A stretch of DNA of 64,000 bases from assembly GCA_041650835.1 (NCBI GenBank), contig JBAZKL010000006.1, positions 1,449-65,448 on the forward strand. Reading direction: 5' to 3'. Within the stretch, counting starts at the first letter, position 1; every line of letters starts with the position of its first letter. The DNA comes from Candidatus Omnitrophota bacterium (lineage in GTDB: Bacteria > Omnitrophota > Gorgyraeia > Gygaellales > Profunditerraquicolaceae). The notes below the pieces were generated by a model, which was given only the letters and a program-made list of their open reading frames with translations, did not search any database and was not told the DNA's origin. This document shows positions 10,385-63,075 of the stretch, piece after piece. Made by a program: the position numbers and the translations under genes.

Positions 10385-10390
10385 CCACTC

Positions 10391-11632: not shown

Positions 11633-11636
11633 GGCT

Positions 11637-14664: not shown

Positions 14665-15065
14665 TATCTTTTCAGGTCCAAATGGCGTTCTATTTTCTGA
14701 AAGAAAACATTAATATCGTCAATACTGACAGTAACGTCTTTCGTGTCGGAACTTATCTTCTCGATGTTATGCTTTAACTCCGATAACTCTTTACGCAGGA
14801 CATCATCAGACAAGGATACCACCGCATGGTTAAGCGCAAACAAAGATCCGGTAATAGTGTAAAGGAACTCCCCCATTATCCCGATCATACGGATCACCGC
14901 CGCGAGAGCAACGCTTATGACAAGTATCAGGATAGCTGTCCCCACAGACTTGATACCCGTAAACTCATAAAAAAGCGTATGCCCGCATAATACCAGCCCC
15001 GCCGCAAAGACGGCTATCGCGGCAAGGTCCAAAACGCGTGTTGTCGGCATCTTCTTTCTTTTCAT
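14664..15065 (-). CDS. Small integral membrane protein with C-terminal coiled coil, unknown function
   Basis: 133 aa with three hydrophobic helices and a charged helical tail. Tightly packed between the rSAM and GT2 genes in the same orientation. Confidence 0.5.
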   Translation of the reverse strand: MKRKKMPTTRVLDLAAIAVFAAGLVLCGHTLFYEFTGIKSVGTAILILVISVALAAVIRMIGIMGEFLYTITGSLFALNHAVVSLSDDVLRKELSELKHNIEKISSDTKDVTVSIDDINVFFQKIERHLDLKR

Positions 15066-15100: not shown

Positions 15101-16372
15101 TCAAAATTCCCGGGCGGACAGCTCAATCACTTTAACGCAGGGCTTAAGGTTCCATATCCAACTGTCCAGGGAATCAAAAAAAGTCTCCAAAAACAAAGAA
15201 TTAAGATACGGATGCTTCGCCTTGAACAACAAACTCCAATCCGTATGGTTCCTGACCAGCTTCTCCAGGGCGTCCAGGAAAGCGTCATCCTCAAACGCGT
15301 CCAAAGAAAGCAGCAAATGTTTATATAAACGCCTGATAAAATTATCGCTCTTAAATTCTTTTTTCAACGCGTCTCCTGAAAGCAGGGTAAGCGCGAGGCA
15401 ATTCTGGGTAAAGGCGCTCGATTCAGGCAAAAAAGTCGGCAAATTATCTCCCGGCCGGTGAAAATGATATCCGAACGTCAGGTCAACCAACGACAACCAG
15501 CAGGTTGACGGCAAAGAATCAGGATACGGCGAAGACCGGCAAAACGACATATATTCCAGGTCCTTTAACGAATGATGGAACGCCAGCAAAAAATCCAAAT
15601 AAAGCAGCTCAGGGCGCCCGGCGGCCGCGTCTTCCCTTATAAAACGGTTTGCCAACCCCAGGTTATCCTTTACCTTAAGCAGTAATTTTTCTTCGCTGGA
15701 ATAAAAACCCCGGCTCTGATGATACGGGAAATACCATCTCCAGAAATTATTAAGCACCGAACAGGCATCATCCTGCTTACAATGATAGGCGAGCGCCTGC
15801 GGCTCGTAGGTAAAGCTATACCCTGACATAAACAATCGGCCGCAAATATCGACATCTTCGTAATTATTTTTTAATATTTCGTTGTAACCTCCTACATTCA
15901 CCAAAGCTTCTTTTTTAAAAACAGTGTTTGAACCGAATAAAAATGCCGGTTTATCACCGAACCCGTCCCAGTGCTGCTTCATGTGCACGCCGCGCCAGAT
16001 ATCGGCAAAGCCGGACTGGTTTCGCTCAATGAGCTTGCCCCCCGCCCCGGCGACCTCTTTCTGCTCGAAGCTGCGCATAATATGTTTGAGCCAATCTTTT
16101 TCAGGCACACAGTCCGCGTCGATGGACGCGATATATTCGGAGCTTAAATTATGTATCGCGGTGTTACGTACCGACGCCAGGCCGGCGTTATTATCGAGCC
16201 GGAGGAGCCTTACCGGATATGTTGAGGCGACCTCCGCGCTTTTATCTCTGGAACAGTCATCGATGACCAGGATATCTTTTAACGGATACGACTGCTTCAA
16301 CGCCGCTTCAATACTCTGGCCTATCGTCTTTTCGGCATTATAGCAGGGTATATAAAGGGAAACTTCTTTCAT
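15101..16372 (-). CDS. Family 2 glycosyltransferase with ~170-aa C-terminal extension
   Basis: VSLYIPCYNAEKTIGQSIEAALKQSYPLKDILVIDDCSRDKS...DADC is GT2. The C-terminal third is unassigned. Confidence 0.75.
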   Translation of the reverse strand: MKEVSLYIPCYNAEKTIGQSIEAALKQSYPLKDILVIDDCSRDKSAEVASTYPVRLLRLDNNAGLASVRNTAIHNLSSEYIASIDADCVPEKDWLKHIMRSFEQKEVAGAGGKLIERNQSGFADIWRGVHMKQHWDGFGDKPAFLFGSNTVFKKEALVNVGGYNEILKNNYEDVDICGRLFMSGYSFTYEPQALAYHCKQDDACSVLNNFWRWYFPYHQSRGFYSSEEKLLLKVKDNLGLANRFIREDAAAGRPELLYLDFLLAFHHSLKDLEYMSFCRSSPYPDSLPSTCWLSLVDLTFGYHFHRPGDNLPTFLPESSAFTQNCLALTLLSGDALKKEFKSDNFIRRLYKHLLLSLDAFEDDAFLDALEKLVRNHTDWSLLFKAKHPYLNSLFLETFFDSLDSWIWNLKPCVKVIELSAREF

Positions 16373-16382
16373 GCTGTCGCTC

Positions 16383-17546
16383 TCAATGTATTTGCTTCCT
16401 TAAGAATTCTTTCGCGGCACGGATCTCTTCTAAAACCCGAGATGCCGGTTTTTTATTCTTTTTTAAAGGATTATTTAAACGGACAAGGGTATTGAATGTT
16501 TTCTTAAAAAGGTACTGCGCGTATTGATACGCCCTGAAATACTGGCGCTTGTAGAATTTAGGCTGTTTTATTTTTTGAGCTTTGAGAGCTATCATTTCAG
16601 GGATACTATCCACACCGTACTGCGTGTCATAGCAACTCATAAGGCAGCCTGAACATTTATCTTTCAGCACGGATCCCCGCAACAGCTCATGGGCAGCCGA
16701 TCCCCAGATCTGCGTGATCTTTTTGTCCTTACAGTTGCCGATAACGATCTCCGAAAGCACCCAGCAAAGATGTATGTCCCCCCCTGATGAGATCGGGCAC
16801 GACGCCCATAAAGCGGAGCATTGGGCACCGGTATCGCGCCGCCTGGTTCCCGTAAGGTAGGCGGGGATATTGCGCAGGTAAGCAGCCGGGTTCGTGGAAA
16901 TCCTGTATTTCCTGGAAAGCTCTATGACTTTTTCAATGCTTCTTAAGATATCACCCCGCGCTTTTTCTTCGCATAAGAACCGGCTGGAACAGGATTTATC
17001 GTTTAAGAATATATCGCTAAAGGGCTGGAATTTTACCGTCGTTACCCCAAAACGGGCGGCCAATTCCATAACTTCAGCAAGGACGCTGAAATTCAGCTTG
17101 CAGACCATGGTAGCGATCGTAGTTTCGATCTTATGGCTGCGCAAGTTTTCCAAAGCCAAAAGCGCTTTATCATAATTACCGCGCCCGCGCAGCGCGTCAT
17201 GGGCCTCCCGCGTGCCCTCGATAGAAATATTGACCACCCCTATACCCGTTGAGGCAAGCATGGCAGCCGTTTCATCGGTTATCATCGTACCGTTGGACGT
17301 AAGGCAGGTATTGACCTTACGATGGTTGGCGAACGCGATCAATTCACCGATATCAGGGCGCACGAGGGGCTCCCCTCCGCTAAAAACGATCGTGCGGGGA
17401 TGCAGCTCGATAATATCCTCTATCAAGCCTTTAAGCTCAGACGTCGTCATTTCCGGAGCGCTCGTCATGGGTATCTGGCACATCGCGCAGCGTAAATTGC
17501 AGCGGTTCGTGATCGAAATAATTACTTCCGTTAATCTCTTTTCCAT
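16383..17546 (-). CDS. Radical SAM enzyme with SPASM-type C-terminal Cys cluster
   Basis: ITNRCNLRCAMCQIP (CxxxCxxC) near the N-terminus. C-terminal CSALWASCPISSGGDIHLCW...GNCKDK...CSGCLMSC gives seven Cys in a SPASM pattern. Confidence 0.85.
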   Translation of the reverse strand: MEKRLTEVIISITNRCNLRCAMCQIPMTSAPEMTTSELKGLIEDIIELHPRTIVFSGGEPLVRPDIGELIAFANHRKVNTCLTSNGTMITDETAAMLASTGIGVVNISIEGTREAHDALRGRGNYDKALLALENLRSHKIETTIATMVCKLNFSVLAEVMELAARFGVTTVKFQPFSDIFLNDKSCSSRFLCEEKARGDILRSIEKVIELSRKYRISTNPAAYLRNIPAYLTGTRRRDTGAQCSALWASCPISSGGDIHLCWVLSEIVIGNCKDKKITQIWGSAAHELLRGSVLKDKCSGCLMSCYDTQYGVDSIPEMIALKAQKIKQPKFYKRQYFRAYQYAQYLFKKTFNTLVRLNNPLKKNKKPASRVLEEIRAAKEFLRKQIH

Positions 17547-18700
17547 TTTTTACTTTCTTTACGGATCATGGCCTCATACCGCGATAATAACGCTATCCCT
17601 TCATTCAACAAATCTTTTTCCCGCCCTTTTTCAAGGCGTAAGGAACCCGCTTCCTTGCGGAAATTCCGCACGATACCTTCTAGATCGTCAGCCTCCGGCC
17701 TCCCCCAACACGTCTGCAGGCACGGACGGTTACAGCGCAGCATTCTTTCCCGCGCGCGCTTTGCCTCTTTAGTCTCTAAACATTCACTCAAGGTCATTTC
17801 TTTGACATTTCCGAAAGCCGGCCCGCAGCTTCTCACAAAGGCGTCAGGGCCGATATCGATAAAAACATAGGGGTTGCATTTCCAGTCTTTTTTCGTAAGG
17901 TCCCACTGGAAATAACGCAGCCATAAAAAAGGGTCATGCAAGAACGCGACATACCCTTCATTCTTGCGATACTCGGCTATTTTTTCAATTTCTTGTTTTA
18001 ATCGCGGCAGATATTCGTCGGTGACCCAAAAATGCCCTGATTTGATCGTATTCTGCATATCATCCTGCGTCACAATGACCGGATGATAGACGAGGCATTC
18101 GACTCCCCGCGCCCTTGTTACGGGAATGATACCGGACAATTCACCGACATTTTCTTTCATTATGGTCGTCCAAACGGAGATCTGCGGGCCCGCGGGATAC
18201 GATCTCTTTTCCTCGCTCAAGAGGCTTAACGCCTCCAATGCCGCCTCAAAAGCGCCGGGGACTCCCCTGATCGCGTCATGCACCCCGGCGGACGCCCCGT
18301 CAAGAGAAACAGCGATATTGCTTAATCCCGAACGGATGATCTTGCGCGCGATACCCCTGTCTTTGATCTGGCTGCCGTTGCTGACCAGCTCAAGCCTGAT
18401 CCCCAGAGAAACCGCGCACGCGATGATCTCAAATATATCCTCGCGCAAAAAAGGCTCCCCGCCGGTAAAAACCATTACCGGATCAGAGTCCCATTGCGCT
18501 ACCTCTTTAAAAACTTTTTGCAGGAGCCCAAGCTCCAGTTCATGCTCCCGTAAGATCTTGCTTACTCCGCACATTTGACAGGAATAATTACAGCGATGCG
18601 TCAGGCTGACAAATATCCAATGCGGTTTACTTAACGGGACGCCAACCTGCCCTGAAAAATAATACCCCAAATTCTTTTCTAATTCTTTAAGCAGCTTCAT
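17531..18700 (-). CDS. Radical SAM enzyme with SPASM/twitch C-terminal Cys cluster (start trimmed from longest ORF at 18856 to internal ATG at 18700)
   Basis: THRCNYSCQMCGV rSAM motif. C-terminal CNPYVFIDIGPDAFVRSCGP...CNRPCLQTCW. The longest ORF overlaps the upstream gene by 116 nt. The Met at 18700 (MKLLKELEK...) removes the overlap. Confidence 0.8.
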   Translation of the reverse strand: MKLLKELEKNLGYYFSGQVGVPLSKPHWIFVSLTHRCNYSCQMCGVSKILREHELELGLLQKVFKEVAQWDSDPVMVFTGGEPFLREDIFEIIACAVSLGIRLELVSNGSQIKDRGIARKIIRSGLSNIAVSLDGASAGVHDAIRGVPGAFEAALEALSLLSEEKRSYPAGPQISVWTTIMKENVGELSGIIPVTRARGVECLVYHPVIVTQDDMQNTIKSGHFWVTDEYLPRLKQEIEKIAEYRKNEGYVAFLHDPFLWLRYFQWDLTKKDWKCNPYVFIDIGPDAFVRSCGPAFGNVKEMTLSECLETKEAKRARERMLRCNRPCLQTCWGRPEADDLEGIVRNFRKEAGSLRLEKGREKDLLNEGIALLSRYEAMIRKESKKWKRD

Positions 18701-18740
18701 ATGCCCACTTTCTTGCCGGAGGAATATTTCTTTCCCCGCG

Positions 18741-20177
18741 TCACAACTGAACTTCGCATCGATAGTGCGCGTGCAGTTTACGCGCCAGTTCCCGGAACCT
18801 GTTGAGCCGCTCTTTGCGTATCGCAGGCGTGCTCTGCGGGCTCCACCACCCGTCATCTTTTATCTCGATGCTATACTTATCGGAATTCAGGCTCAAATAA
18901 GAATCTTCTTCTAAATGGCAACCGGTGATCTGGTCAAAGCGATGGATGTAACGCGCGTTCTCTTTGACAAAATCCAGGGTCAACTGAAAATCATCTTCCG
19001 TTTCCGTAGGGTAGCCGATCAGGAAAAAACTATTCACCCTGATCTTTGCTTTCCAGGTATCCCGAAGGATCCTTTTGGTCTCCATAAGGCTGGTATTCTT
19101 ACGCATGTCCTGCAGCACCCGGTAGGAGCCGCTTTCCACGCCGTAGGAAAGATCGGTACAGCCGCTCTTTTGCATGCGGGACAACAACGCGTAATCCATT
19201 TCTTTACGCAGCGTCGCTTTTGCCGACCAGCGGATCTTTAAACGCGACTCAATGATGAGCGCGCAGAGCTTATCCAGGCGCTCGATATTGCCGTTAAAGG
19301 TTGAATCGACTATTTCAAAATCAGTGATGCCGTATTCGCCTGATAGAAAAGAAAATTCTTCGAAAACCCTTTCCGCCGACTGATACCGGTAAACTTTCCA
19401 CAAAGGGCTGTCGGCGCAAAAAGTACAGCGGTTCACGCAACCGCGGCTGGAAATGACCGGTAGGCTGCGCTTCGTATAATCATCAAGGTTAAAATCATGG
19501 AAATCAGGAGGCGGCACGATATCCAGGTCCCGTATGAGTTCTCGAGGCTGATTGGCAACTAAAGAGCCGTTTTCCCGGTAGACTCCGCCCTTGATCGTGC
19601 GATAATCTTCATTTTTCCTGATGAAAGATACTATTTCCAGAAGCGCCTGCTCCCCTTCCCCGTCAACGAACAAATCGAAAGCACCACTCTCGATAACGCC
19701 GGTATCCAGATGCGCCCTGCGAATGACGCCGTCAACGTAAATCCGCTTGATCCTGGTGACTTCACAGCCTCCGGCGACGATCGGCACGCGAGGCGCAAGT
19801 TTTTTGAGCTCCTGGGCTAAAAGCAGGCTCGCCGGCATATTCGACATAAAAAGAGAGAACCCGACGACAGAAGGACGGACCGACAATATCTGTTGAGCCC
19901 AATCTCCGAGGACCGGCTTTAAAACAGGAACGATATGCAGGTTAAAAAGTTCAGGGGTCATAAAATATTCCGGAAAATTCAAGTCCCAGCATTTCTTTTC
20001 CGGAAAAACCTTATACAACGCAGCGCTGAAATCAAAACACCTGACACTGACACCATGCTTGCGCAAAAACCCGCTGAGGTAACTGATGCCGATCGGAGGC
20101 TGCGAAACACCCCATAAGGGGCACATAACCAAAACCAACTCCGCCTGTTGATCCACGTTTCTCATATCTTCTCTCAA
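18741..20177 (-). CDS. Cobalamin-binding (class B) radical SAM enzyme
   Basis: N-terminal B12-binding-like region (LVLVMCPLWGVSQPPIGISYLSGFL). rSAM cluster SSRGCVNRCTFCADS. Confidence 0.85.
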   Translation of the reverse strand: MREDMRNVDQQAELVLVMCPLWGVSQPPIGISYLSGFLRKHGVSVRCFDFSAALYKVFPEKKCWDLNFPEYFMTPELFNLHIVPVLKPVLGDWAQQILSVRPSVVGFSLFMSNMPASLLLAQELKKLAPRVPIVAGGCEVTRIKRIYVDGVIRRAHLDTGVIESGAFDLFVDGEGEQALLEIVSFIRKNEDYRTIKGGVYRENGSLVANQPRELIRDLDIVPPPDFHDFNLDDYTKRSLPVISSRGCVNRCTFCADSPLWKVYRYQSAERVFEEFSFLSGEYGITDFEIVDSTFNGNIERLDKLCALIIESRLKIRWSAKATLRKEMDYALLSRMQKSGCTDLSYGVESGSYRVLQDMRKNTSLMETKRILRDTWKAKIRVNSFFLIGYPTETEDDFQLTLDFVKENARYIHRFDQITGCHLEEDSYLSLNSDKYSIEIKDDGWWSPQSTPAIRKERLNRFRELARKLHAHYRCEVQL

Positions 20178-20183
20178 CTGTTC

Positions 20184-21317
20184 CTATGGCCTGTTTTCAA
20201 AAAGCCTGCTTCGTTCCCGGATATCCGACATCTCAATGAATTCATCGCGGTAAGCGCACCACTGCAAACAGGGATACGCGCAGGTGCGTATCAATTTTCT
20301 CAAACGCCGCGCTTTTTTTGAGAACCATACTTCTTTTAAACGGTCCGTATCCATATTCCCGATCACTGCTTCATGCTCGGATTGATTTACGCAAAAATAT
20401 ATTTTTCCTTCCTGGACAACCTGAATACGGTTAAACCCGGAATAACAAGGAAGCTCACCGGCCTTTAAAGCGCGGCGAAAATATTTCTTTATAAGCTTTA
20501 AGTGAGGTATCGAATTGGCGATAAAATCATAATTATCGCGGCTTGAGCGCTTATACTCAATAAGGGAATCGATCGCGTTGTCCAGGAGCGCGAACTCCTG
20601 TTCAGGGACGAACACTTCCGAGCTGAAATCAATACGGTTTTGGTCGGTATTGTCGCGCACTACGGGCTGGAAAATGATCCGCGGGATCAAAAGCCTCCGG
20701 CATAAGCCGACAACATCCATGAGCTCATGCACATTTTGACCCATAATAGTGCAAACACAGACGATATTCGGCAAAACCAGCTTATTGCGTTCTTTCATCC
20801 GGTTAAGCATCGTTACGTTATCTATGATCTTTTGTAAGACGTTTTCACCCCGTATTTGAGCGACAACCTCCTCTGAGGCAGCGTCGATAGAAATGCTTAA
20901 GTTATCCAGCTTAGATTCGAATATTTTCCCGATAACAGGCTCAGTGAACAACGTCCCGTTAGTAACGACAGTCACGCCGCGCATCCCGCAAAGTTTAGCG
21001 TAGGAAATGAGCTCATAGATGCCGGCGTCTAAGAACGGCTCCCCTCCGATCAAGATCAAATACTGAACGCCCATAAGAACAGCTTCTTTAATGAGCTTCT
21101 TTATGGTCTCCTTGTCCAGTTCGGTCTGTTTATTTTGCAGGCGAAACGACTCCATACGTTCGTGCATACTGCACATTTTACAGCGCAAATTACACCGGAA
21201 GGTGAAATTGATCTGCAGGCAATCGGGGGAAACAAGCGGATAATCGATCTTTCGGGACAGCCAGAACAAAAACCCCCGCCGCATCAAATAAAATAACCGT
21301 TTACGCTCAACACTCAT
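20184..21317 (-). CDS. Radical SAM enzyme with SPASM/twitch C-terminal Cys cluster
   Basis: NFTFRCNLRCKMCSM rSAM motif. C-terminal CVNQSEHEAV...CAYPCLQWCAY. Confidence 0.85.
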   Translation of the reverse strand: MSVERKRLFYLMRRGFLFWLSRKIDYPLVSPDCLQINFTFRCNLRCKMCSMHERMESFRLQNKQTELDKETIKKLIKEAVLMGVQYLILIGGEPFLDAGIYELISYAKLCGMRGVTVVTNGTLFTEPVIGKIFESKLDNLSISIDAASEEVVAQIRGENVLQKIIDNVTMLNRMKERNKLVLPNIVCVCTIMGQNVHELMDVVGLCRRLLIPRIIFQPVVRDNTDQNRIDFSSEVFVPEQEFALLDNAIDSLIEYKRSSRDNYDFIANSIPHLKLIKKYFRRALKAGELPCYSGFNRIQVVQEGKIYFCVNQSEHEAVIGNMDTDRLKEVWFSKKARRLRKLIRTCAYPCLQWCAYRDEFIEMSDIRERSRLFENRP

Positions 21318-21329
21318 AAGATTACCTCT

Positions 21330-23252
21330 TTAGTCGGTAAAACAAGGCAGCAGGCATGGCGACGGACAACCCGCGGCCTTGCGGCGCGCCTGTCCCGCCG
21401 CGGGAGCATGAAAGATCCGCGAGAGCGGCTCTTTACGGATATTCCCGTAACAATCAAAACAGGTCGTTGTATCCCCGGTATAGGCGACAAGCATCGTTCT
21501 TTCCGCGTTACGGCACTGTATATCGCGATTGTGGAGCGTGCCGCGAAAATATTTTTTTACCAACTCCAGGTTATTCTCCGAATTCCTCAAAAACGCGCTG
21601 TTTTTCTTTTTAAAAGCAACGATATCATCGATCGCTTTATCAAGGACCGGCAGCCTTTCCGCCGGGACCCAATATTTAACCTGAGATCCCCTGTCTTTCA
21701 AGATCCGGTTATTGGAAAGTAACGGCTGAAACTGCAAAGAATCGGCACGCAACGATAAAATTGTATCCGCGATCGCCCTCAACTCTTCCAGGTTCCCGTT
21801 AAGTATGATCGTGATGACATTAAAATTTATACCCGGGGAGGTTTTTTTCCTCTCAGAAAGCATTTTTATGCCCGCGAATGTTTTTTCAAAGCTCCCCCTC
21901 AAACCGCGGATCTCATCATGCACCTGAGGGCGCAAGCTATCCAGAGAAATGCACAGCGATAACGAACCGCTTGTTAAATACGGCAGGAGCTTCCCCAGGA
22001 AATCTTGGGTGAGTAAAATACCGTTTGTCAGTATGCCGACGCGATACTTGCTTTGCTTAACAAAATCAAGGATCGGAAAGATATCGGGACGGATAAGCGC
22101 TTCCCCTCCGGAGAGCACAAAGTCCTTTACTCCCCAATCGATCGCCTGCGCGATAAGACCTTTCACTTCCTGCGTGGTATATTCAAGGATAGGCTTGTCT
22201 TTCCTTATATCGCAAATCGCGCAGGACAGGTTACAACGGTGCGTAATATCCAGTATGATAGTTTCCGGCCTTTCAAGGGTGAAGTTCGCGGGCGGACATT
22301 GCGCGTTCGGCGTTGCCGGGGCAATTTTTCTGAGCGTAAAATATTCCCTCAGATTACCGGACAAATACACGGCTTTATGCAGCATGAAATACGCGAAAAC
22401 CTGAACGCTCCTGTAAAACCCGCGTACTTTGTGTTTTTTTATTAACGAGGCCCCTAAGGTATAAGCAAAACGCGGTATTTTAAGAAAATTAACTATCGTT
22501 GCCCCTGAGAAAAAAAAGATATTATCCGTTCTTATCTCTTTTAACAGAGGATGGTCTTGATGGAAATGCTTGACCCGGCAATTACCTCTGCCGTACAAAT
22601 ATGCCTGGCGGACAAACGACCTCAGGTTCATTGAGCAATTATGGATGACCGCGACGTCCTTGCTATAAACAAACCTGCCTCCGGACTTATGCAACCTCCA
22701 GAAAAATTCCAGGTCCTCTCCTGCAGGAAAACAAAAACTCTCGGCGAATTGCCCGGACACGGAGCTTTTTTTAAAAGAAACATTGCAGGTGGGGAAAAAA
22801 ATTATTCTTTTCTCACCTTTGATATCGGCGAAGATCGCTCCGTCGCTTAAAGACTGGCTCACCAGGGCTTTTACGTTACGCTTATCAACGCAGGTTGCCC
22901 CCCCGACAACGTCCGCCCGCGGGTCGATTGCGTGCGCGTTAAGCATCGCGCGCGCCCATGAAGCCGTTAAGCTGCAATCGTCATCAGTAAACCCGACTAT
23001 GCCGGCTTTGGACTGTTTGACCCCGAAATTCCTGGCAGCTGCCGGGCCATGATTGTCCTGATAGTAATACCTCAGTCGGGGAAAAACAGGCTTTAACGCT
23101 TCAACCATCTCTTTAGTCCCGTCGGTCGAGCCGTCATCAACAACAATTATTTCAAAGCGCTCAGCGGGATAATCCTGGGCAAAAATAGATTCCAGGCAGG
23201 CTTTAAGCTTGTTTTTACGGTTAAATGTCGGGACAACTATAGAAATATCCAT
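21330..23252 (-). CDS. Bifunctional fusion: N-terminal family 2 glycosyltransferase + C-terminal radical SAM/SPASM enzyme
   Basis: N-terminus ISIVVPTFNRKNKLKACLESIFAQDYPAERFEIIVVDDGSTDGT...FTDDDC is GT2. From ~aa 330, ITHRCNLSCAICDI (CxxxCxxC) and C-terminal CFDCYGN...CPSPCLLPCF SPASM-like cysteines. 640 aa. Confidence 0.85.
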   Translation of the reverse strand: MDISIVVPTFNRKNKLKACLESIFAQDYPAERFEIIVVDDGSTDGTKEMVEALKPVFPRLRYYYQDNHGPAAARNFGVKQSKAGIVGFTDDDCSLTASWARAMLNAHAIDPRADVVGGATCVDKRNVKALVSQSLSDGAIFADIKGEKRIIFFPTCNVSFKKSSVSGQFAESFCFPAGEDLEFFWRLHKSGGRFVYSKDVAVIHNCSMNLRSFVRQAYLYGRGNCRVKHFHQDHPLLKEIRTDNIFFFSGATIVNFLKIPRFAYTLGASLIKKHKVRGFYRSVQVFAYFMLHKAVYLSGNLREYFTLRKIAPATPNAQCPPANFTLERPETIILDITHRCNLSCAICDIRKDKPILEYTTQEVKGLIAQAIDWGVKDFVLSGGEALIRPDIFPILDFVKQSKYRVGILTNGILLTQDFLGKLLPYLTSGSLSLCISLDSLRPQVHDEIRGLRGSFEKTFAGIKMLSERKKTSPGINFNVITIILNGNLEELRAIADTILSLRADSLQFQPLLSNNRILKDRGSQVKYWVPAERLPVLDKAIDDIVAFKKKNSAFLRNSENNLELVKKYFRGTLHNRDIQCRNAERTMLVAYTGDTTTCFDCYGNIRKEPLSRIFHAPAAGQARRKAAGCPSPCLLPCFTD

Positions 23253-25969
23253 TAAAGAGATACCTTTATTTCACCGGTGAAATACGTATACTCACCGGCG
23301 GGGATCTTCTGTTCTTTAGAATTCAGGACCTGCAGGACCCTCCCCCGGTGGTACATATCGGAGTTAATGATCGCCGGCACCCACGCGAAGCTTGACCTTC
23401 CGGGAGAGACGCTTACGGCAGGCATACGCTCAGAAAGCCCGTTAACCGCTTCTACGCCGACGCAAGCCGAACCGTCAGCTTCCCGATGGATACTATCCCA
23501 ATCATCATCAAGAGAATCTTTAAAATCGGGAAATTCACCGTTATTCCCGCCTGCCGTCCACCGGGTATAACGCTCTAACAGCATCAGGTTTGCCTGCAAC
23601 CGGTCGACCTCTATTTCTTCTTCCACGGTCATTTTTACGGCCACGTCTACCGAAACGCCGTTACGTATCCTGATTTCCCATAACTGGCTTACCGGCAAAT
23701 GCCGCCACTTGCCTTCGGCAACGACAAAAGAATCTTCCTGACGGACTTTCCAAAGAGCGGAAGACGAAGAATCATACCAGCGCCCGCCTGAACGCAAAGC
23801 GGTATAGAATCCCATCCGTTTAGTAAGCTCAACACCATCCCAAAACAACTCCCCGCGGCCTTTCTCAAACACAAACCTTAGCTTATCCGACTGCACCGTA
23901 CTGCCGGCCGTGTCATCGGCCAAAGGCGTATTCTCACCCAATACCACTTCCGCCTCCAAGCAAGGGTATATCCCGGGAGAATGCAGCAGTTCTTTTTCCG
24001 GTTCAACTCTTTGGACGCGCACGATCCGGGACCTCTCATTAAAATCCGCATTCATTATCTTGGCAAAATTATTCAACCCCTTGGAGAACCTGATCGTCAA
24101 AGAGGGAAACTGTTTATTCTCACTGGTAACGCCGACAGCCCCATCGCCGATACAGCGCTGAACGACGTCAACGCCGGCTTCCAGAAAATTATCGGGAAAA
24201 TTCCCCCTGCCATATTCAGAGAACCAGGAGCGATACTGCTCAGAACACATAAAACACATATATTGTTCTTCGAGAGAAACTTCCTTTTCAACTTCCAGGG
24301 TAACTTTCCAGCGGAAAGAAGATTTTCCCGTGACGGCGAGCTGCCATACCTCAATAAAGCCGAGGCCGGGACGTTTCCCCCGCGCGGTCAAGGTATAAGC
24401 GCCTGTCTTCTCAACTTCCCATTGCGCGTTATTAGAAGGCCATTGTTTTCCCTTCGAAAAGATCAAGGTCACCAAATGAAACGCCTTGGTCAAATATATG
24501 CCTGCCCAGGCAAGCAGGCAAGAGCCATGGTCGAACATCAACCGAAGCTCGCCTTGGCTGAGGATCACGTCATCCTGTTTCTTGATCAAAAAGTCGCCGG
24601 TATCAGGGACATTAAACACGACCGATCCCTGGAAATAAACGGCAGCTTGAGGAAGAGTGAGCTCATCCGCGGAGAGGACGCCTATGCTGAATCGTATAAG
24701 CCGGCAATTCAATATATAATCGCTATTATAGACTTGGGTCTTCTTTACCTGCGCGCAGCTATCATAAGAGATACCCAAAGGCGGGATTAGTCCTGCGCCC
24801 TGCGGACTCACCGCGAGGCCGATAGCCTTGCGCGCGACATTATGCTCAAGCAAAGGCTTCGCGTGCACATCCTGCAGGTCAATAGCGGGAAATTCGCCTG
24901 ATTCCACGATAGTAACCCACCGGCCATAATCATTAACGAACATAAGATCGATATGCCCCGTCTTGACCTCTATTGGCCGGGAAGCCTCGTAACTAAAGCT
25001 GAAACTTAACTCATTGTCTTGACGTATCGTTATCTTCCAGAGTATCGTTAACGGCACGTGATAAAAAACGCCCCGGGCAGATAATTCAGAATCATTCACC
25101 TGAACGACCGACCATTCAGCCTGGGTGGAACTATACCACCGGTTTGATATAAAGAAAGAACTCGTCACACCGGTATTAGGGGTCAGGAGTTTATCATTCC
25201 AATTAAAAAAAATACTGCCGTTATTAAATACGACGTCGAGGTTTTCTTTCTCCAAGACCGCCACGCCTTCTTTAACCCCGATGGTCTGCGAATACAGAGA
25301 TATGGAGCTGTCGATAAGGTCATCTTTGACCAGCCGGCCGTCTTTCATGAACAACGCCCTTTTACAAAGGCGCCCCAGGAGTGATAGGTCATGGCTGACA
25401 AAAATGATAGTCTTGCCCTGTTCCTTCAATTCCAGGACCTTCTTGATACATCTTCGCTGGTAATATTCGTCCCCGACCGACAGGATATCGTCGATCAAAA
25501 GGACCTCAAAATTAACGTGAATAGCGATGGCAAAAGCAAGCCTGACAAACATCCCTTGAGAATAACACTTTACCGGCGCGTTAATAAACCTGCCGATCTC
25601 GGCGAAACATACAATATCTTTCGTTCTCTCCTCAATTTCATTATGGGGGACGCCGAACAAACCGACATTCAAATGAACGTTCTCTAATCCCGTCAATTCC
25701 GGCTGAAACCCCGCGCCTAACTCCAGCAAGCCGGAGACCCTGCCGTTCACCCGGACCTGTCCCCTGTCAGGCTGCAACATGCCCATGATCAATTTTAATA
25801 TGGTTGTTTTACCCGAACCGTTACCGCCGATGAGTGAGAGTGCCTCTCCCTGCTCGACTTCGAACGATATATTCTTCAGCGCCCAGAAATTCTCCCACCT
25901 GGCCTTTTGGTCTTCCACCATCTTAAGGCGGTACATTTCCCAGACATCGTTAAAAGAAATAATTTTCAT
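23252..25969 (-). CDS. wzt: ABC transporter ATP-binding protein (Wzt/TagH/KpsT-like) with ~650-aa C-terminal extension
   Basis: Walker A GGNGSGKTT, signature YSQGMFVRLAFA, Walker B LLIDDIL, H-loop VSHD within the first ~250 aa. The remaining ~650 aa are non-ABC. Confidence 0.85.
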   Translation of the reverse strand: MKIISFNDVWEMYRLKMVEDQKARWENFWALKNISFEVEQGEALSLIGGNGSGKTTILKLIMGMLQPDRGQVRVNGRVSGLLELGAGFQPELTGLENVHLNVGLFGVPHNEIEERTKDIVCFAEIGRFINAPVKCYSQGMFVRLAFAIAIHVNFEVLLIDDILSVGDEYYQRRCIKKVLELKEQGKTIIFVSHDLSLLGRLCKRALFMKDGRLVKDDLIDSSISLYSQTIGVKEGVAVLEKENLDVVFNNGSIFFNWNDKLLTPNTGVTSSFFISNRWYSSTQAEWSVVQVNDSELSARGVFYHVPLTILWKITIRQDNELSFSFSYEASRPIEVKTGHIDLMFVNDYGRWVTIVESGEFPAIDLQDVHAKPLLEHNVARKAIGLAVSPQGAGLIPPLGISYDSCAQVKKTQVYNSDYILNCRLIRFSIGVLSADELTLPQAAVYFQGSVVFNVPDTGDFLIKKQDDVILSQGELRLMFDHGSCLLAWAGIYLTKAFHLVTLIFSKGKQWPSNNAQWEVEKTGAYTLTARGKRPGLGFIEVWQLAVTGKSSFRWKVTLEVEKEVSLEEQYMCFMCSEQYRSWFSEYGRGNFPDNFLEAGVDVVQRCIGDGAVGVTSENKQFPSLTIRFSKGLNNFAKIMNADFNERSRIVRVQRVEPEKELLHSPGIYPCLEAEVVLGENTPLADDTAGSTVQSDKLRFVFEKGRGELFWDGVELTKRMGFYTALRSGGRWYDSSSSALWKVRQEDSFVVAEGKWRHLPVSQLWEIRIRNGVSVDVAVKMTVEEEIEVDRLQANLMLLERYTRWTAGGNNGEFPDFKDSLDDDWDSIHREADGSACVGVEAVNGLSERMPAVSVSPGRSSFAWVPAIINSDMYHRGRVLQVLNSKEQKIPAGEYTYFTGEIKVSL

Positions 25970-26749
25970 TTATATATTCTTTAATATCCTGTTCTCCAGG
26001 CGGGAGAAAACGATAAAGCCCAGGATAACGCTTATGACAGACCAGCAAAAAACGCCCCGGATCAACAAGGCGTCGGGGATAACGCCGTAATAAAGGATTT
26101 TCTGATAAGAAAGAATGAACGGGACCATTGGGTTAAAATTAAATATCCACTGGAACCGCTCGGGCATGACATCGACCGAATAAAAAACAGGAGTAAGCCA
26201 AAACAGGAACATGAGCGCCACCGACAGTAAATAAACGATATCCCGGAATAAAACGGTAAGGACTGACAAAAGCAGCCCCAGCCCCAGCAGCAAAACCAGA
26301 TGAAAAAGAAATATAACGGATAAAACCGGCGCCAGAAGGATTATTTTCGGGTTAAAAAACAAGAAAACCGGGAATAAAACCAGCCAACCGATCAGGAAGT
26401 TAAGGAAATGCGCCAGGACCGAGCTTAACGGCAGGATCTCCCTGGGCAGGTTAAACTGCCGTAATATATTAAGTTGATTCAAGATAGAACCCGCTGATTC
26501 CGTCAAAGCGTTTGAGAAAAACATCCAGGGTATAATGCCCGAAAAAATAAAGAGAGGAAAATTACGCATCTCCACCTTAAAAACACAGGTAAAAACAAAT
26601 GTTATGACCGACATGATCAAAAAAGGGCTGATCAAAGAAGCATATATCCCGGTAAAGGAAGAAGCATAACGCGCCTTTAACTGGGATATCGCCATGTCCC
26701 AGAGCGTGTGCCGGTAAAGAAAAAGCGCTTTGAGCCTGCCGTGTATCAT
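25970..26749 (-). CDS. wzm: ABC-2 type transporter permease (Wzm-like)
   Basis: 259 aa with six hydrophobic helices. Immediately upstream of, and abutting, the ATPase gene. Confidence 0.8.
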   Translation of the reverse strand: MIHGRLKALFLYRHTLWDMAISQLKARYASSFTGIYASLISPFLIMSVITFVFTCVFKVEMRNFPLFIFSGIIPWMFFSNALTESAGSILNQLNILRQFNLPREILPLSSVLAHFLNFLIGWLVLFPVFLFFNPKIILLAPVLSVIFLFHLVLLLGLGLLLSVLTVLFRDIVYLLSVALMFLFWLTPVFYSVDVMPERFQWIFNFNPMVPFILSYQKILYYGVIPDALLIRGVFCWSVISVILGFIVFSRLENRILKNI

Positions 26750-28050
26750 AATAATAATGATTCCGCTGTATTCTTGCCGTCAAGTATCGCGTCTTCCATG
26801 GACATGTACCGCCATGAGCCGTAGCGGCCGCATAAAAACATGTTTTTTCCCAGCAGGTAGCGCGCAATGACGCCGCGCGCCGGGTTGTAATTTCTATCAT
26901 ACAGAGGATACCCGTATTGAATATCATTAACACTGCTCAGGCAAACACGGTTTTCCGCCGGCAGGAGCCCTACCTTCTTTAGGTCTTTTTTTATACGGGC
27001 GATCATACTCTTTTTATCAATGCCTTTTCCTGGTGAATAAGATGCTTCAATATACAAAGAACTTTTACGCGCCGGGACAAGATGAGAAGAAAAATTATGA
27101 GGAAACCCGGCACGGAAAAAACACACATCTTTCTGGGGGTAATATATCCAATGCCTTCGGCTGGATTCCTGCCCGTCGAATCCGAGATTGAGGTTAAAGA
27201 TCGAATTCCATCTTAATTTTGAGAACGCCCTCTCGACCGCGGGCGGCACCCGACTCAAAAGCTTTGCCGCTTCAGGTAACGGCAGCGTTGAAACTAAACG
27301 CTCGAAAGCTACCTTCTCTCCATGGGAAAAAGATACTTCCTGCTTCTCCAGATCGATCCCCGTAACCAGGCAACCGGTATGTATTTGACGCAGGCTCCTT
27401 GCGAAAGCCTGCGGGACTTCGCTGATCCCGCCCGCTCGGGGATACCAGAACCGGGCATTATAGCCGTATTGGCGCTTACTTTCCTCGATAGTCCCTTCGA
27501 CGATCTCCTTTAAGGTAGGAACGGGTATAAAGCCATCGAACCATTCGCAGGTCATCTGCTGAGGCGCAATTGTCCAGAACTTAGTATTGTAGGGGACCAT
27601 GAAATGCCGCGCGATGCCGCGGCCGAACGTAGCATGTATCCAGGACAAAAAATCACGCTTTTTACCGGACTCTTTTTCGGGGCTGTTTTGCGCCTCAATA
27701 AAGCCCAGGAGGCATTCTTCAACGACAGAATGCGGCAGCCCGAAGAGATTAGCCTGAAAAGGATAACGGGTATCCAAGCCGAATGAATGGACCCAGGCGC
27801 TTTTTTGATGTTCGGCTAAATTTCCCGCCAACATCCTTTTGATCAGGTCGAACGCGTACGCCTGCTTAAAATGCAGCAAGTGCCCGCAATAATCAAAAGT
27901 AAAATCATTTATTTTCCGGGAACGGCATAACCCGCCGGCCTCATCTTCCTTTTCATACACATGGCAGTCAATACCGTTTTTCTGCAGATGCCATGCAGCG
28001 CTCAAACCCGCGACCCCAGCTCCTAAAATAACGACCTTTGTTTTAACCAT
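26746..28050 (-). CDS. FAD/NAD(P)-binding oxidoreductase resembling UDP-galactopyranose mutase
   Basis: Rossmann GxGxxG at the N-terminus (VVILGAGVAGLSAAWHL...YEKEDEAGG). Internal YNTKFWT block resembling the Glf Y-x-E-K-Q-W motif. 434 aa. Confidence 0.55.
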   Translation of the reverse strand: MVKTKVVILGAGVAGLSAAWHLQKNGIDCHVYEKEDEAGGLCRSRKINDFTFDYCGHLLHFKQAYAFDLIKRMLAGNLAEHQKSAWVHSFGLDTRYPFQANLFGLPHSVVEECLLGFIEAQNSPEKESGKKRDFLSWIHATFGRGIARHFMVPYNTKFWTIAPQQMTCEWFDGFIPVPTLKEIVEGTIEESKRQYGYNARFWYPRAGGISEVPQAFARSLRQIHTGCLVTGIDLEKQEVSFSHGEKVAFERLVSTLPLPEAAKLLSRVPPAVERAFSKLRWNSIFNLNLGFDGQESSRRHWIYYPQKDVCFFRAGFPHNFSSHLVPARKSSLYIEASYSPGKGIDKKSMIARIKKDLKKVGLLPAENRVCLSSVNDIQYGYPLYDRNYNPARGVIARYLLGKNMFLCGRYGSWRYMSMEDAILDGKNTAESLLL

Positions 28051-29029
28051 CTAATGATGCTTTACCGAAAGACCTGGTTAAGAGAAAACTGCATGCTATT
28101 AAGGCAAGAATAATGATACTCCCCGCGGAATTCTTGAACCCATGCAAAATAGCCCCGCACAATGAATACACTAAAGCGATACATCCTATATACACCAGCG
28201 CCTGGCGCTTTGAAAAGCCGGCTTTGAGCAATCGCAACGCGAAATGGTCGGCGCTTTTCTTAAAAACAGATTTTTTCCGGCGCATACGCATTAACATGAC
28301 GAACACCGTATCAAAAATAGGGAACCCGAGGATCACTAACGGGCTCAACAACGCTACCCGGTTTTCCATATCGGCATATTGCAGGACCAAAGAAATCGCG
28401 GCAAGGACGAAACCGACAAAGTGGCTGCCGGAATTCCCCATATATATTCGGGCGGGAGGAAAATTAAAAACCAGGAAACTTAAAAGGACAGCCGCTAATA
28501 TTATCGATATGACCGCGCTTCCTAAATCGTATTGGAACAACCCCAGCACGAAGAAAGAAAAGACCGCTATCAGCGCGACAAGGCCGGCTAAACCGTCCAT
28601 AACATCCAAATGATTGAACGCGTTAGTAATGCCGACCACCCACACCAGCGTGAGGATCGCGTTTGGAACTGCCCCGATCCCGGCTATCTGGGTCCTTACA
28701 TTAAAAAAAACAAGCAGCAAAGCCGCGATCGCCTGGACCGCGAATTTAGAAGCTACGGATAATTCCTTGAGATCATCGATAACGCCAAAGGCCAGCATGA
28801 CCAGGGAAGCCAGTAATAATCCCCAGAGCTCTTTTATCCAAAATCCTCCGCCGATAAGCCAAATGGCAGACACGATCAGGAAGCTTAGCCCCATCGCGAT
28901 ACCTCCTGCCAGAGGGATGCCGCGGACGGACAAAAGCTTCGATTTCGCGAAGCGCTTCAGAAATATAAGCAAAAACAAAGAACTCACGCTAAAAGCAACA
29001 AATAACAAGAGAGCGAATTTAACGATCAT
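28043..29029 (-). CDS. Polyprenol-phosphate N-acetylhexosamine-1-phosphate transferase (WecA/MraY family, Glycos_transf_4)
   Basis: Ten TM helices. Conserved VGITNAFNHLDVMDGLAGL and cytoplasmic DD motifs of the MraY/WecA family. Confidence 0.85.
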   Translation of the reverse strand: MIVKFALLLFVAFSVSSLFLLIFLKRFAKSKLLSVRGIPLAGGIAMGLSFLIVSAIWLIGGGFWIKELWGLLLASLVMLAFGVIDDLKELSVASKFAVQAIAALLLVFFNVRTQIAGIGAVPNAILTLVWVVGITNAFNHLDVMDGLAGLVALIAVFSFFVLGLFQYDLGSAVISIILAAVLLSFLVFNFPPARIYMGNSGSHFVGFVLAAISLVLQYADMENRVALLSPLVILGFPIFDTVFVMLMRMRRKKSVFKKSADHFALRLLKAGFSKRQALVYIGCIALVYSLCGAILHGFKNSAGSIIILALIACSFLLTRSFGKASLDG

Positions 29030-30210
29030 TCCCGGATACCTTTTGTTTTCAAGATACTCTCATACATCCCTGCAGTCTCCAGAACCATTTTCCCGGCGCT
29101 AAAACTATCCCCCAAAGCTTCTCTTGAGGCCTGCCCCAGGCGTTTCCTCAAAGCATCATTCTTCAATAAGGCGCTCACCTGCCGCGCCATCAACGCGGGT
29201 TCACGCGCGGCGACAAGAAATCCGGTCACTCCATTTTTAACTACCTCGGCTACCCCGCCGGTGTTGGTCACGACTACCGGCACTTCTAAACGCATCGCTT
29301 CCAATACCACGACCGGTAAACCTTCCCACAAAGAGGTCAAAACCAGTACATCCATCGCGGCATAAAGCTCAGGCATATCAAAACGCCAGCCAGCCAGGAT
29401 GACCTGGCTCCCAAGGCCGGATTCACCGATCTTTTTCTCTATACGGCCGCGTAAAACGCCGTCTCCCACAAGCAGGAATCTTACCCGGCAGGGGAGCTTT
29501 TCAGAAACGCAATATTCACTTATTAACGAAGCTATCCTGATAAAATCAAGGGGGTTTTTTTGAGGCTTAAAACAGGCTGCCATCCCCACAAGCAGCTCAT
29601 TGTCTCGAATTCCCAAACGCTCCCTGGCTTTAGACCGGACATCTTCCTGTTGAGGCCGGAACTCATGGTAATCGATCCCATAGCGTATCAACCGGTACAA
29701 AGAGCCCCCGCCGATCTTAAGCATGCACCCCTTTTGCTTATCAAAAAGCGAAACAACGATCACCGCGTCGGAAAACCGCGCGCAAACCCTTTCAAGCCAA
29801 ATGTAAACAAACCTTACAAAAGCAGGCTGATATTCATTGAACGACCACCCATGCACCGTATGAATGATACTGGGCGCTTTGGCAAGCCGGGCGGCGAGCC
29901 GGCCAAGAATACCGGCTTTAGAACTATGCGTGTGGACAACATGAAACTTATTTTTACGGATAAACCAATAGATCTCAAAGAAAGCTATCAGGTCTTTTAA
30001 AGGATTCACCGGCCGTTCGAGAAACCGCGACGCGTGGATGCTCACCCCCGGGATAGAGGCAGCCTCTTTGAAAAGCAGGCCTTGATGAGCGCTAAACAAT
30101 ACAACGGCATACCTGGATTTATCAAGGCCGGCAATAAGGCTTAAGAGTTGTTTTTGCGCTCCCCCCAGCTCTAATTTCGTAATAACATACAACAGGTTTA
30201 TCTTCGGCAT
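29026..30210 (-). CDS. Family 1 (CAZy GT4-like, GT-B) glycosyltransferase; first gene of the glycan operon
   Basis: C-terminal EGLPVVVLEAMRLEVPVVVTNTGGVAEVV is the Glycos_transf_1 E-x7-E region. Preceded by a sigma70-like promoter. Confidence 0.85.
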   Translation of the reverse strand: MPKINLLYVITKLELGGAQKQLLSLIAGLDKSRYAVVLFSAHQGLLFKEAASIPGVSIHASRFLERPVNPLKDLIAFFEIYWFIRKNKFHVVHTHSSKAGILGRLAARLAKAPSIIHTVHGWSFNEYQPAFVRFVYIWLERVCARFSDAVIVVSLFDKQKGCMLKIGGGSLYRLIRYGIDYHEFRPQQEDVRSKARERLGIRDNELLVGMAACFKPQKNPLDFIRIASLISEYCVSEKLPCRVRFLLVGDGVLRGRIEKKIGESGLGSQVILAGWRFDMPELYAAMDVLVLTSLWEGLPVVVLEAMRLEVPVVVTNTGGVAEVVKNGVTGFLVAAREPALMARQVSALLKNDALRKRLGQASREALGDSFSAGKMVLETAGMYESILKTKGIRE

Positions 30211-30220
30211 AATCTTATTT

Positions 30221-30248
30221 ATTATATCGTTAATTAAAAAAATTTCAA
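30221..30248 (-). promoter_or_regulatory. Sigma70-type promoter TTGAAA-N16-TATAAT driving the glycan operon
   Basis: Minus strand: TTGAAA (plus 30243-30248), 16-nt spacer, TATAAT (plus 30221-30226), then 10 nt to the ATG at 30210. Confidence 0.45.
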
Positions 30249-62800: not shown

Positions 62801-63075
62801 GTTTTAAATTCTGATTCTTTTTTCTTTATCGCCTCCAACTCAACGCGCGCGGCCTCAAGTTCGGCTTTCACCGAATCATTCTCTTTTTCTAGAATGGCGG
62901 TTTGTGTTTCCAGGCGCTGTATCTTTTGTTCCCGGTCAAGCGTTTCCTGCTCCCGGGCAGTCTTGCCTCCTTTGGGTTGACGAGGCGAAGCCCCTTGAGA
63001 ATCTTCAGGAGAGACCAGCGCGAAGACGACCAGGCCGATCCCCACGACCAACATTCCCCCGAGCAATAAGATCAT
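59869..63075 (-). CDS. Elongation factor G paralog fused to an N-terminal transmembrane helix, ~240-aa coiled coil and Pro/Glu-rich linker
   Basis: C-terminal ~695 aa are canonical EF-G: G1 [10 protein letters not shown]3 DTPGHVDF, G4 NKMD, domains II-V. N-terminal aa 1-22 hydrophobic ([21 protein letters not shown]). aa 40-280 K/E-rich heptads. aa 280-365 EPxxP acidic linker. All in one uninterrupted frame. Confidence 0.85.

Follow-up and report, generated by a model that had tools for sequence, protein, structure and literature searches.

A glycosyltransferase–radical SAM fusion gene within a conserved surface-glycan operon of the uncultivated phylum Omnitrophota

The fusion gene and its two enzymatic halves

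We analysed a stretch of 64,000 nt (hereafter, the window) from contig JBAZKL010000006.1 of a Candidatus Omnitrophota bacterium (assembly GCA_041650835.1, positions 1,449 to 65,448 of the forward strand). The gene under study, at 21330..23252 on the minus strand, is an open reading frame (ORF) of 640 aa with an ATG start which, according to the ORF list and Pfam, joins a family 2 glycosyltransferase (GT2) to a radical S-adenosylmethionine enzyme (radical SAM, rSAM). Its ATG shares one base with the stop codon of the upstream gene (TAATG), which encodes a Wzt-like ABC ATPase. An earlier note, made from the letters of the sequence, had described the product as a single polypeptide comprising a GT2 and a radical SAM/SPASM enzyme, knew of no characterisation of the architecture, and named a frameshift or an assembly error as what would overturn the description.

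NCBI holds an identical protein, annotated as 'MAG: glycosyltransferase [Candidatus Omnitrophota bacterium]' (MAG, metagenome-assembled genome), as found by a word-indexed search of 5.8 billion proteins. In the same search, more than 120 further database proteins of 620–657 aa covered 100% of the query at 45–80% identity, and both Pfam domains were present in every one of them. A locus scan using one genome per GTDB species yielded 69 loci; 52 fetched, independently assembled loci, nearly all of them from Candidatus Omnitrophota MAGs, carried an uninterrupted fused orthologue of 611–655 aa, or a longer triple fusion, at 40–80% identity. The GT2::rSAM fusion is, therefore, genuine and conserved among the uncultivated Omnitrophota. 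An artefact in which a sequencing frameshift or a chimeric assembly merged two neighbouring genes is practically ruled out: a few genomes (L056, L063 and L057) do hold the halves as two genes, but the same uninterrupted ORF recurs in 52 independent assemblies from many studies, the >120 database proteins align from end to end, and the split forms show proper overlapping stop/start signals rather than shared-frame frameshifts.

The description in the earlier note is thus borne out, and the motifs it quoted (VVDDG, DDDC, CxxxCxxC and a C-terminal Cys cluster) are present and correspond to invariant columns among 43 aligned homologues. Other cases of the architecture, for which it had suggested a search, comprise the 52 fused loci and a set of distant GT2::rSAM fusions. 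Full-text literature searches gave no characterised example of the architecture and no description of the fusion or its operon. A 2026 preprint on Omnitrophota genomes does not mention the fusion; radical SAM figures there only among the Pfam domains that co-occur in giant proteins. A literature match from Xanthomonas to 'radical SAM + wzt' was unrelated.

The first 235 residues (22548..23252) form the GT-A catalytic domain, as delimited by Pfam (PF00535, PF13641 and PF10111), invariant columns, Foldseek and a PDB profile. Glycos_transf_2 (PF00535) matches aa 4–127 with an E value of 2.7e-31 and 109.2 bits against a gathering cut-off of 23.3, and the Glyco_tranf_2_3 and Glyco_tranf_2_2 models reach further, to aa 216–234. 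Conservation was examined in an alignment of 43 members at 46–80% identity, where the invariant residues of this half are D39/D40 (VVDDG), D90-x-D92 (TDDDC) and G178-E179-D180. With a Pfam score above the cut-off, a DxD motif, a putative acidic catalytic base (E179-D180) and a GT-A fold, the half is a member of family GT2, and it is most likely an inverting, metal- and DxD-dependent GT-A enzyme, as predicted from these features.

The solved structure closest to the GT half by PDB sequence profile is K4CP, the chondroitin polymerase of E. coli K4 (E 1e-38), and GalT1, TarS/TarP and PglI-like enzymes are further close matches. Foldseek returned TarP/TarS, K4CP, PcManGT, WrtF and AvpGT, with an identity to K4CP of about 17–24%. 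Polyprenyl-phosphate GT2s were far weaker in the profile search (DPMS 1e-11, ArnC 3e-7), and an enzyme of the DPMS/ArnC/GtrB type was rejected because the half lacks a transmembrane helix and glycan-elongating GT2s match it much better. Among NCBIfam models, MftF was the second-best match, with 133.8 bits against a cut-off of 280, and the alignments to the hidden Markov models of PgaC and NodC-type enzymes end at aa ~126. The conserved segment Q216-x3-Y220-G-R-G presumably resembles the QxxRW-ARG of processive GT2 synthases, a likeness on which we do not rely.

A conserved helical extension of the GT domain follows (aa 236–310; 22323..22547), defined by the AlphaFold2 model, hydropathy and conservation. 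Its helices (245–257, 259–273 and 279–310) are modelled with a predicted local distance difference test score (pLDDT) of ~90, and the motifs DHPLLKE, K258-IPRF and H292-K..Y..GN are kept. Residues 245–273 form a hydrophobic helical hairpin, and a true transmembrane helix was not found in the extension, where the maximum Kyte–Doolittle mean over 19 residues is 1.25. The extension is probably a membrane-interface or acceptor-binding module.

The second half opens with the radical SAM core, a partial TIM barrel (aa 328–510; 21723..22271) identified by PF04055, AlphaFold2 and Foldseek. Radical_SAM (PF04055) covers aa 336–497 with an E value of 1.1e-20 and 75 bits against a gathering cut-off of 29.5. 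The CX3CX2C motif (C340, C344 and C347; 22212..22235), the predicted SAM-cleaving [4Fe-4S] site, is invariant in the 43 sequences, as is GGE (aa 382–384), within S381-G-G-E384. The PF04055 score, CX3CX2C, GGE and the partial TIM-barrel model together place this half in the radical SAM superfamily. Given that the catalytic motifs are invariant across the 43 sequences and that the Pfam cut-offs are passed, both halves of the protein appear to be under selection as enzymes.

The C-terminal domain (aa 511–640; 21333..21722), delimited by Pfam, alignment and fold, is SPASM/Twitch-like. SPASM (PF13186) matches aa 580–633 with 20.4 bits, slightly under its cut-off of 21.5, and five Cys at 21342..21515 are invariant in the 43 sequences (C580...G593x4C598...C629x3C633x3C637), C601 being not conserved. 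These five Cys do not correspond to the seven-Cys definition of SPASM (CX9-15GX4C...CX2CX5CX3C...C): the opening hairpin is kept as CX12GX4C, CX3CX3C, at the far C-terminal end, replaces CX2CX5CX3C, and the final Cys is missing. Two rSAM paralogues encoded downstream, b and d, do exceed the Pfam cut-off for SPASM, which indicates that the domain of the fusion is homologous to SPASM but reduced. The five-Cys pattern is complete in paralogues b and c, and paralogue d, with only CX3C at the terminus, has four Cys. The simplest reading is a single Twitch-like auxiliary cluster; in the Twitch comparison, SkfB superposes with a template-modelling (TM) score of 0.70 and a root-mean-square deviation of 3.9, and five Cys would be an appropriate number for a single cluster with full ligation.

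Foldseek matched the rSAM half to SuiB, SkfB, BlsE, DesII, CteB, viperin and anSME, with TM scores of 0.6–0.72 and 14–22% identity, the peptide maturases SuiB and SkfB being the top matches. The best PDB sequence match was BlsE (E 2e-15), over the core only (aa 323–495). SkfB, SuiB and anSME (TM 0.67–0.71), and likewise CteB, have in common with the fusion a C-terminal beta-hairpin CX12GX4C and further Cys; the fusion differs from these SPASM enzymes in having five Cys, no RiPP recognition element (RRE) domain (RiPP, ribosomally synthesized and post-translationally modified peptide) and a glycan rather than a peptide context. BtrN is another SPASM/Twitch radical SAM enzyme. Judged from its sequence, the rSAM half belongs to the SPASM/Twitch branch of the superfamily and to no characterised family within it.

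Between the halves lies an inter-domain linker (aa 311–327; 22272..22322), located by pLDDT, alignment indels and the points at which natural forms are split. Its sequence and length vary among the 43 sequences, with indels at alignment columns 340–350, and residues 310–325 fall below a pLDDT of 50 in the full-length AlphaFold model, which suggests a disordered or flexible tether of ~16 aa. The full-length model has a mean pLDDT of 87 and a predicted TM score (pTM) of only 0.52; modelled by itself, the rSAM half reaches a pLDDT of 90 and a pTM of 0.89. The low whole-protein pTM, the disordered linker and the good model of the rSAM half indicate two domains that fold independently on a flexible tether. 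Natural split forms agree in position with this boundary. The halves are adjacent genes in L056 and L063, with overlapping stop and start codons and the cut exactly in the linker, and two other genes stand between them in L057; the first part of the split forms ends at query residues 304–311, and the second restarts at 320–329. An exhaustive HMMER search also returned many stand-alone GT halves (aa 1–305) and stand-alone rSAM halves (aa 325–640). From the split forms and stand-alone halves we conclude that the GT and rSAM modules are a functional pair, usually but not necessarily covalent.

A conserved operon for an exported glycan

From 30210 down to 12468, every gene of the window lies on the minus strand, with ends overlapping or near-abutting. 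The first operon gene encodes a GT4 glycosyltransferase (29026..30210; Pfam), and the best promoter-like site of the region, an 11/12 match, is found immediately upstream of it at 30221..30248. It is followed by a WecA/MraY-family polyprenyl-phosphate sugar-1-phosphate transferase, the initiating enzyme (28043..29029; PF00953), a homologue of UDP-galactopyranose mutase (UGM) of the eukaryote type (26746..28050; identified by phmmer against PDB) and a Wzm-like ABC-2 permease (25970..26749; PF01061), all three conserved in the loci. Next comes the Wzt-like ABC ATPase of 905 aa (23252..25969; PF00005 and NCBIfam), whose gene overlaps the fusion. On the other side, rSAM/SPASM paralogue b (20184..21317; Pfam) begins 12 nt past the stop codon of the fusion, with an AGAGG ribosome-binding site before its start. 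Further downstream are B12-binding radical SAM enzyme a (18741..20177; Pfam and NCBIfam), rSAM paralogue c (17531..18856; Pfam), rSAM/SPASM paralogue d (16383..17546; Pfam), GT2 glycosyltransferase b (15101..16372; Pfam), whose orthologue in L001 is fused to an rSAM domain (880 aa), and a membrane protein of 133 aa (14664..15065; ORF list). The last two genes encode B12-binding radical SAM enzyme b (13306..14664) and GT2 glycosyltransferase c (12468..13346; Pfam), which is conserved in the loci and is the last conserved gene of the cluster. The HpnJ model TIGR03471 aligns almost end to end on B12-binding enzyme b, with 257 bits against a cut-off of 577.6, and two GT2 genes flank it. The mechanical ORF of paralogue c overlaps that of B12-binding enzyme a by 116 nt; alignments with homologues begin only at aa ~53, so that translation probably starts at an internal ATG around 18700.

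The gene order (GT4, WecA-like transferase, UGM, Wzm, Wzt, GT2::rSAM, a block of rSAM and B12-binding rSAM genes, and GT2s) recurs in about 50 Omnitrophota genomes, with about 3–10 paralogous rSAM or B12-binding rSAM genes per operon. In 28 of 50 loci the gene directly preceding the fusion is Wzt, in most cases at a distance of −7 to +9 nt, and the gene immediately downstream encodes an rSAM or B12-binding rSAM enzyme in 38 of 50, paralogue b accounting for 23. Fusions of other compositions occur as well, namely GT2::rSAM::rSAM of 963 aa, GT2_b::rSAM of 880 aa, B12-rSAM::GT2::rSAM of 1170 and 1161 aa, and B12-rSAM::rSAM of 849–991 aa; the sites of such variants include 8411..11923 in L016, 10001..12892 and 20045..22687 in L001, 13025..15574 in L038 and 12037..15012 in L063. 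The exhaustive HMMER search also detected distant GT2::rSAM fusions at 27–34% identity, one of which (P0183) is located in a different glycan cluster together with GT4, GT2, MurA/MurB-like, SGNH and B12-binding rSAM genes. These other fusions, along with the natural splits, constitute Rosetta-stone evidence that the two halves act in one pathway.

The UGM homologue matches the UGM of T. cruzi in PDB (4dsg; phmmer E 1.9e-43 over aa 3–416) and that of A. fumigatus (~1e-37), the match to bacterial Glf reaching an E value of only 0.008, and the Pfam label of the protein is amine oxidase. A bacterial phylum here has a UGM of the long form, which implies a glycan containing furanose. In NCBIfam, the Wzt ATPase is matched best by the models for TagH and galactan Wzt (148.5 bits); it bears a C-terminal extension of ~650 aa, and its whole length of ~900–930 aa is kept across the phylum. 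Pfam gave no match past the ATPase domain, including none to a Wzt_C-type carbohydrate-binding domain, the PDB sequence search gave none for the last 655 aa, and self-BLAST at E 1e-3 found no internal repeat. In a cross-species BLAST, aa 470–897 of the Wzt of the window aligned with aa 239–669 of that of L016, which suggests that the extension contains duplicated modules. The extension may be a new glycan-recognition domain.

The operon brings together in one locus PF00953, GT4, GT2s, PF01061 and PF00005, a combination conserved in ~50 loci, and no Wzx flippase or Wzy polymerase was found in it. The pathway is that of an ABC-transporter-dependent surface glycan, which probably contains galactofuranose. 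No genes for nucleotide-sugar dehydratases, epimerases or aminotransferases were found in the cluster of the window or in three Pfam-annotated relatives, which leaves the rSAM enzymes as the sole candidates for generating sugar diversity. Omnitrophota are ultra-small, possibly host-dependent and uncultivated, and, as the operon is conserved across the whole phylum, its product is probably a major surface structure, relevant to host attachment or evasion.

The pathways of Klebsiella D-galactan I and mycobacterial galactan combine a WecA-family initiator, Glf, GT2 and Wzm/Wzt. This gene set is shared with the operon described here, whereas the long eukaryote-type UGM, the 650-aa extension of Wzt and the 5–10 inserted radical SAM genes set the operon apart; we know of no described galactan locus with radical SAM genes inserted. 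Multidomain enzymes are also familiar in ABC-transporter-dependent glycan pathways, examples being WbdA/WbdD of O9a and WbbB of Klebsiella O12. Like the fusion, K4CP/KfoC joins a GT-A module, cytoplasmic or peripheral, to another catalytic module, in a pathway with a polyprenyl-pyrophosphate-linked glycan and Wzm/Wzt export. To our knowledge, the known multidomain enzymes carry a further GT, a kinase or a SAM methyltransferase as their second module, and never a radical SAM domain. The radical SAM block and its physical fusion to glycosyltransferases have no described counterpart.

Several genes outside the conserved order may bear on the pathway. A Wzy_C/O-antigen-ligase-family membrane protein of the ligase type is encoded at 5067..6209 on the plus strand, flanked by GT2 genes at 4005..4970 (minus strand) and 6178..6903 (plus strand), and would fit a step in which the glycan, once exported, is ligated to a lipid or core acceptor. 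Adjoining the cluster on its downstream side, the minus-strand genes at 6952..12458 encode CysD and CysN (sulfate adenylyltransferase), a type-I phosphodiesterase-family protein of 689 aa and a sulfatase-family protein, which suggests a possible sulfation or phospho-modification of the glycan, this adjacency being found only in the closest relative (L006). SGNH/GDSL genes lie inside several clusters (L001 12942..14027, L055 and L077), and the region upstream of the Wzm/Wzt genes in L001 (708..4905) carries two Peptidase_U32 genes and an extra B12-binding rSAM gene.

Proposed function of the fusion and alternative readings

We propose, tentatively and with somewhat less than even confidence, that the fusion is a bifunctional, peripherally membrane-associated assembly enzyme of a Wzm/Wzt surface-glycan pathway, whose rSAM half would tailor the residue just added or the acceptor. 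The substrate, the order of steps and the type of reaction are conjectural parts of this proposal, which builds on the observed domain content, motif conservation, authenticity and operon context. UGM would supply UDP-galactofuranose, GT4 and GT2 enzymes would extend a lipid-linked glycan, and the GT-A half would add one sugar to the polyprenyl-pyrophosphate-linked chain. The tethered rSAM half would cleave SAM reductively to give a 5'-deoxyadenosyl radical, which would take a hydrogen from a carbohydrate C–H of the newly added residue or acceptor, with the single Twitch-like auxiliary Fe–S cluster handling the electron. The sugar would thereby be epimerised, oxidised to a keto form, dehydrated or rearranged in some other way. 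The downstream rSAM and B12-binding rSAM paralogues may tailor it further, C-methylation included, and Wzm/Wzt would export the completed glycan.

A sugar modified after its transfer has a parallel in hopanoid cyclitol ethers, where HpnI, a GT2, adds the sugar and HpnJ, a B12-binding rSAM enzyme, is linked to its subsequent ring contraction. The order of GT2 and then rSAM is alike, and B12-binding enzyme b is both HpnJ-like and flanked by GT2s; HpnI and HpnJ differ in being unfused, and no hopanoid genes are present here. The analogy hints at carbocycle-forming chemistry of B12-binding enzyme b on the glycan. Precedents for radical SAM enzymes acting on carbohydrates are BlsE and DesII, which matched the rSAM half here, and also BtrN, NeoN and AviX12.

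Several points weigh against this proposal. Peptide maturases aside, the structures closest to the rSAM half are BlsE, DesII and viperin, which act on nucleotide-linked substrates and not on polymers, and the expense of one SAM per modified residue would be high for a long polymer. AlphaFold, with a pTM of 0.52, predicts neither a confident interface between the halves nor a mutual orientation of their active sites. As the natural split forms show, the halves need not be covalently linked, and the glycan product, galactofuranose included, is read from gene content only.

The earlier note had gone further in this respect: from the covalent fusion it had deduced direct radical chemistry on the sugar or lipid-linked intermediate that the transferase handles. 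The idea is plausible, and the two halves do act in one pathway, but action on the nucleotide-sugar donor fits equally well. The note had also confined itself to one gene; what it said of the fusion stands, but a phylum-wide operon with 5–10 radical SAM genes escaped it.

The main alternative, possible but on balance doubtful in our estimation, places the chemistry on the donor side: by deoxygenation, deamination, decarboxylation or epimerisation, the rSAM half would turn a common nucleotide sugar, such as UDP-galactofuranose, UDP-Glc or UDP-GlcNAc, into an unusual one, which the fused GT would then transfer; the fusion would channel an unstable or scarce donor. BlsE, a cytosylglucuronate decarboxylase, and DesII, a TDP-4-amino-4,6-dideoxyglucose deaminase, are precedents for carbohydrate C–H abstraction and have the same fold as the rSAM half (TM 0.72/0.71 and ~0.6, respectively); together with viperin and MoaA they match it about as well as the peptide maturases do. 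The absence of conventional genes for modifying nucleotide sugars from the operon also favours this alternative, as do the similar numbers of GTs and rSAM enzymes per cluster and the recurrence of GT–rSAM fusions. On the other hand, BlsE and DesII are stand-alone enzymes of antibiotic pathways with just 14–16% identity to the rSAM half, and the fusion is not matched by their NCBIfam models: TIGR04466 is not among its matches and scores 62.9 against a cut-off of 400 on paralogue c. The sequence of the rSAM half identifies no nucleotide-binding site, and the GT precedes the rSAM domain in the fusion, although domain order is a weak argument.

Improbable, in turn, is a role of the rSAM domains in modifying the polyprenyl or membrane-lipid carrier, through C–C bond formation, cyclisation or methylation of the Tes/GDGT-MAS, Mss, GrsA or HpnJ type, with export of a glycolipid. 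The GDGT-MAS structure 7tol matches the rSAM core by PDB profile (E 6e-11), but the Tes match is confined to aa 329–420, the generic cluster-binding region. The HpnJ-like score of B12-binding enzyme b (257 bits) points in the same direction, whereas the operon contains no genes for lipid synthesis, and the conserved partners are all glycan enzymes (WecA, GT4, UGM and GT2s, with SGNH in relatives). Some Omnitrophota MAGs are reported to carry homologues of Mss and Hbs (PMC11868695; bioRxiv 10.1101/2023.10.20.563219), which counts for the lipid alternative. Mss was reported in only 15 of 267 Omnitrophota MAGs, whereas the operon is widespread.

A peptide or cofactor pathway, in which the rSAM half would be a RiPP-type maturase and the GT half would glycosylate its product, a modified peptide or a small molecule, in the way MftF follows MftC, is very improbable. 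The GT2 MftF and the rSAM/SPASM enzyme MftC co-occur in the mycofactocin pathway (PMC3023750). They are separate proteins working on a peptide-derived cofactor, and the scores obtained here lie far under the cut-offs of TIGR03965 and TIGR03962. Although the top Foldseek matches (SuiB and SkfB) and the second place of MftF among the NCBIfam matches of the GT half speak for such a pathway, MftF stays below its cut-off, as does MftC on every rSAM enzyme of the cluster (≤99.3 against 265), and no RRE or PqqD domain was found by Pfam or NCBIfam, the rSAM core following directly after the linker. Moreover, the operon shows no precursor-peptide gene, conserved small ORF or free intergenic space, its only extra ORF being that of the 133-aa membrane protein, and the cluster lacks MftA, MftB, MftD and MftE genes. 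Its exporter, an ABC-2 system of the Wzm/Wzt type, occurs together with WecA and UGM.

An extension of the proposed tailoring of transferred residues, speculative and unlikely as it stands, would cover the whole operon. Omnitrophota might make a radical-tailored, galactofuranose-containing glycan whose residues are rewritten after transfer by up to 10 GT-coupled rSAM and B12-binding rSAM enzymes; the fusion, translationally coupled to Wzt, would install the terminal residue as a cap and modify it by radical chemistry, and the unique 650-aa domain of Wzt would read this cap to license export. If true, this glycan would be the carbohydrate counterpart of the heavily rSAM-modified peptides.

Both domains of the fusion are ordinary members of very large superfamilies, and what is new is a radical module in a multidomain glycan-assembly enzyme. 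Radical SAM carbohydrate chemistry is known to us from only a handful of antibiotic and cofactor pathways, and we know of no radical SAM enzyme in the assembly of a cell-surface polysaccharide, the full-text literature searches having given no report of one. The fusion links an rSAM enzyme to a defined partner (GT2) and pathway (WecA, UGM and Wzm/Wzt), which narrows down the possible substrates far enough for testing in vitro. Taken whole, the operon is a more interesting object than the fusion alone. It holds a family of 4–10 paralogous Twitch-like rSAM enzymes per genome, a potential source of new sugar-modifying reactions.

Fusions in archaeal bins and other genes of the window

The taxon labels of the MAGs are unreliable: for some of the loci they read Planctomycetales, Paceibacterota or Nanoarchaeota. 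The fusion occurs, at 28–43% identity and in glycan clusters, on contigs that were binned as Nanoarchaeota or Woesearchaeota (L055, at 5271..6884, and L043, L051 and L077); L055 contains, in addition, MurA/MurB-like genes and a helicase domain of the archaeal Hel308 type. Mis-binning is one possible origin of these DPANN-binned fusions, and transfer of the cluster between Omnitrophota and DPANN archaea is another.

Elsewhere in the window, two minus-strand genes form a Tc-toxin-like pair. The gene at 53687..57094 encodes a protein of 1135 aa with an SpvB domain, and that at 46689..52832 encodes a protein of 2047 aa with TcdB_toxin_midN, FG-GAP, PKD/cadherin-like domains and RHS repeats. At 59869..63075, also on the minus strand, is the gene for a 1068-aa homologue of elongation factor G; its EF-G domains start at aa 377, after an N-terminal extension of ~376 aa without a Pfam match.

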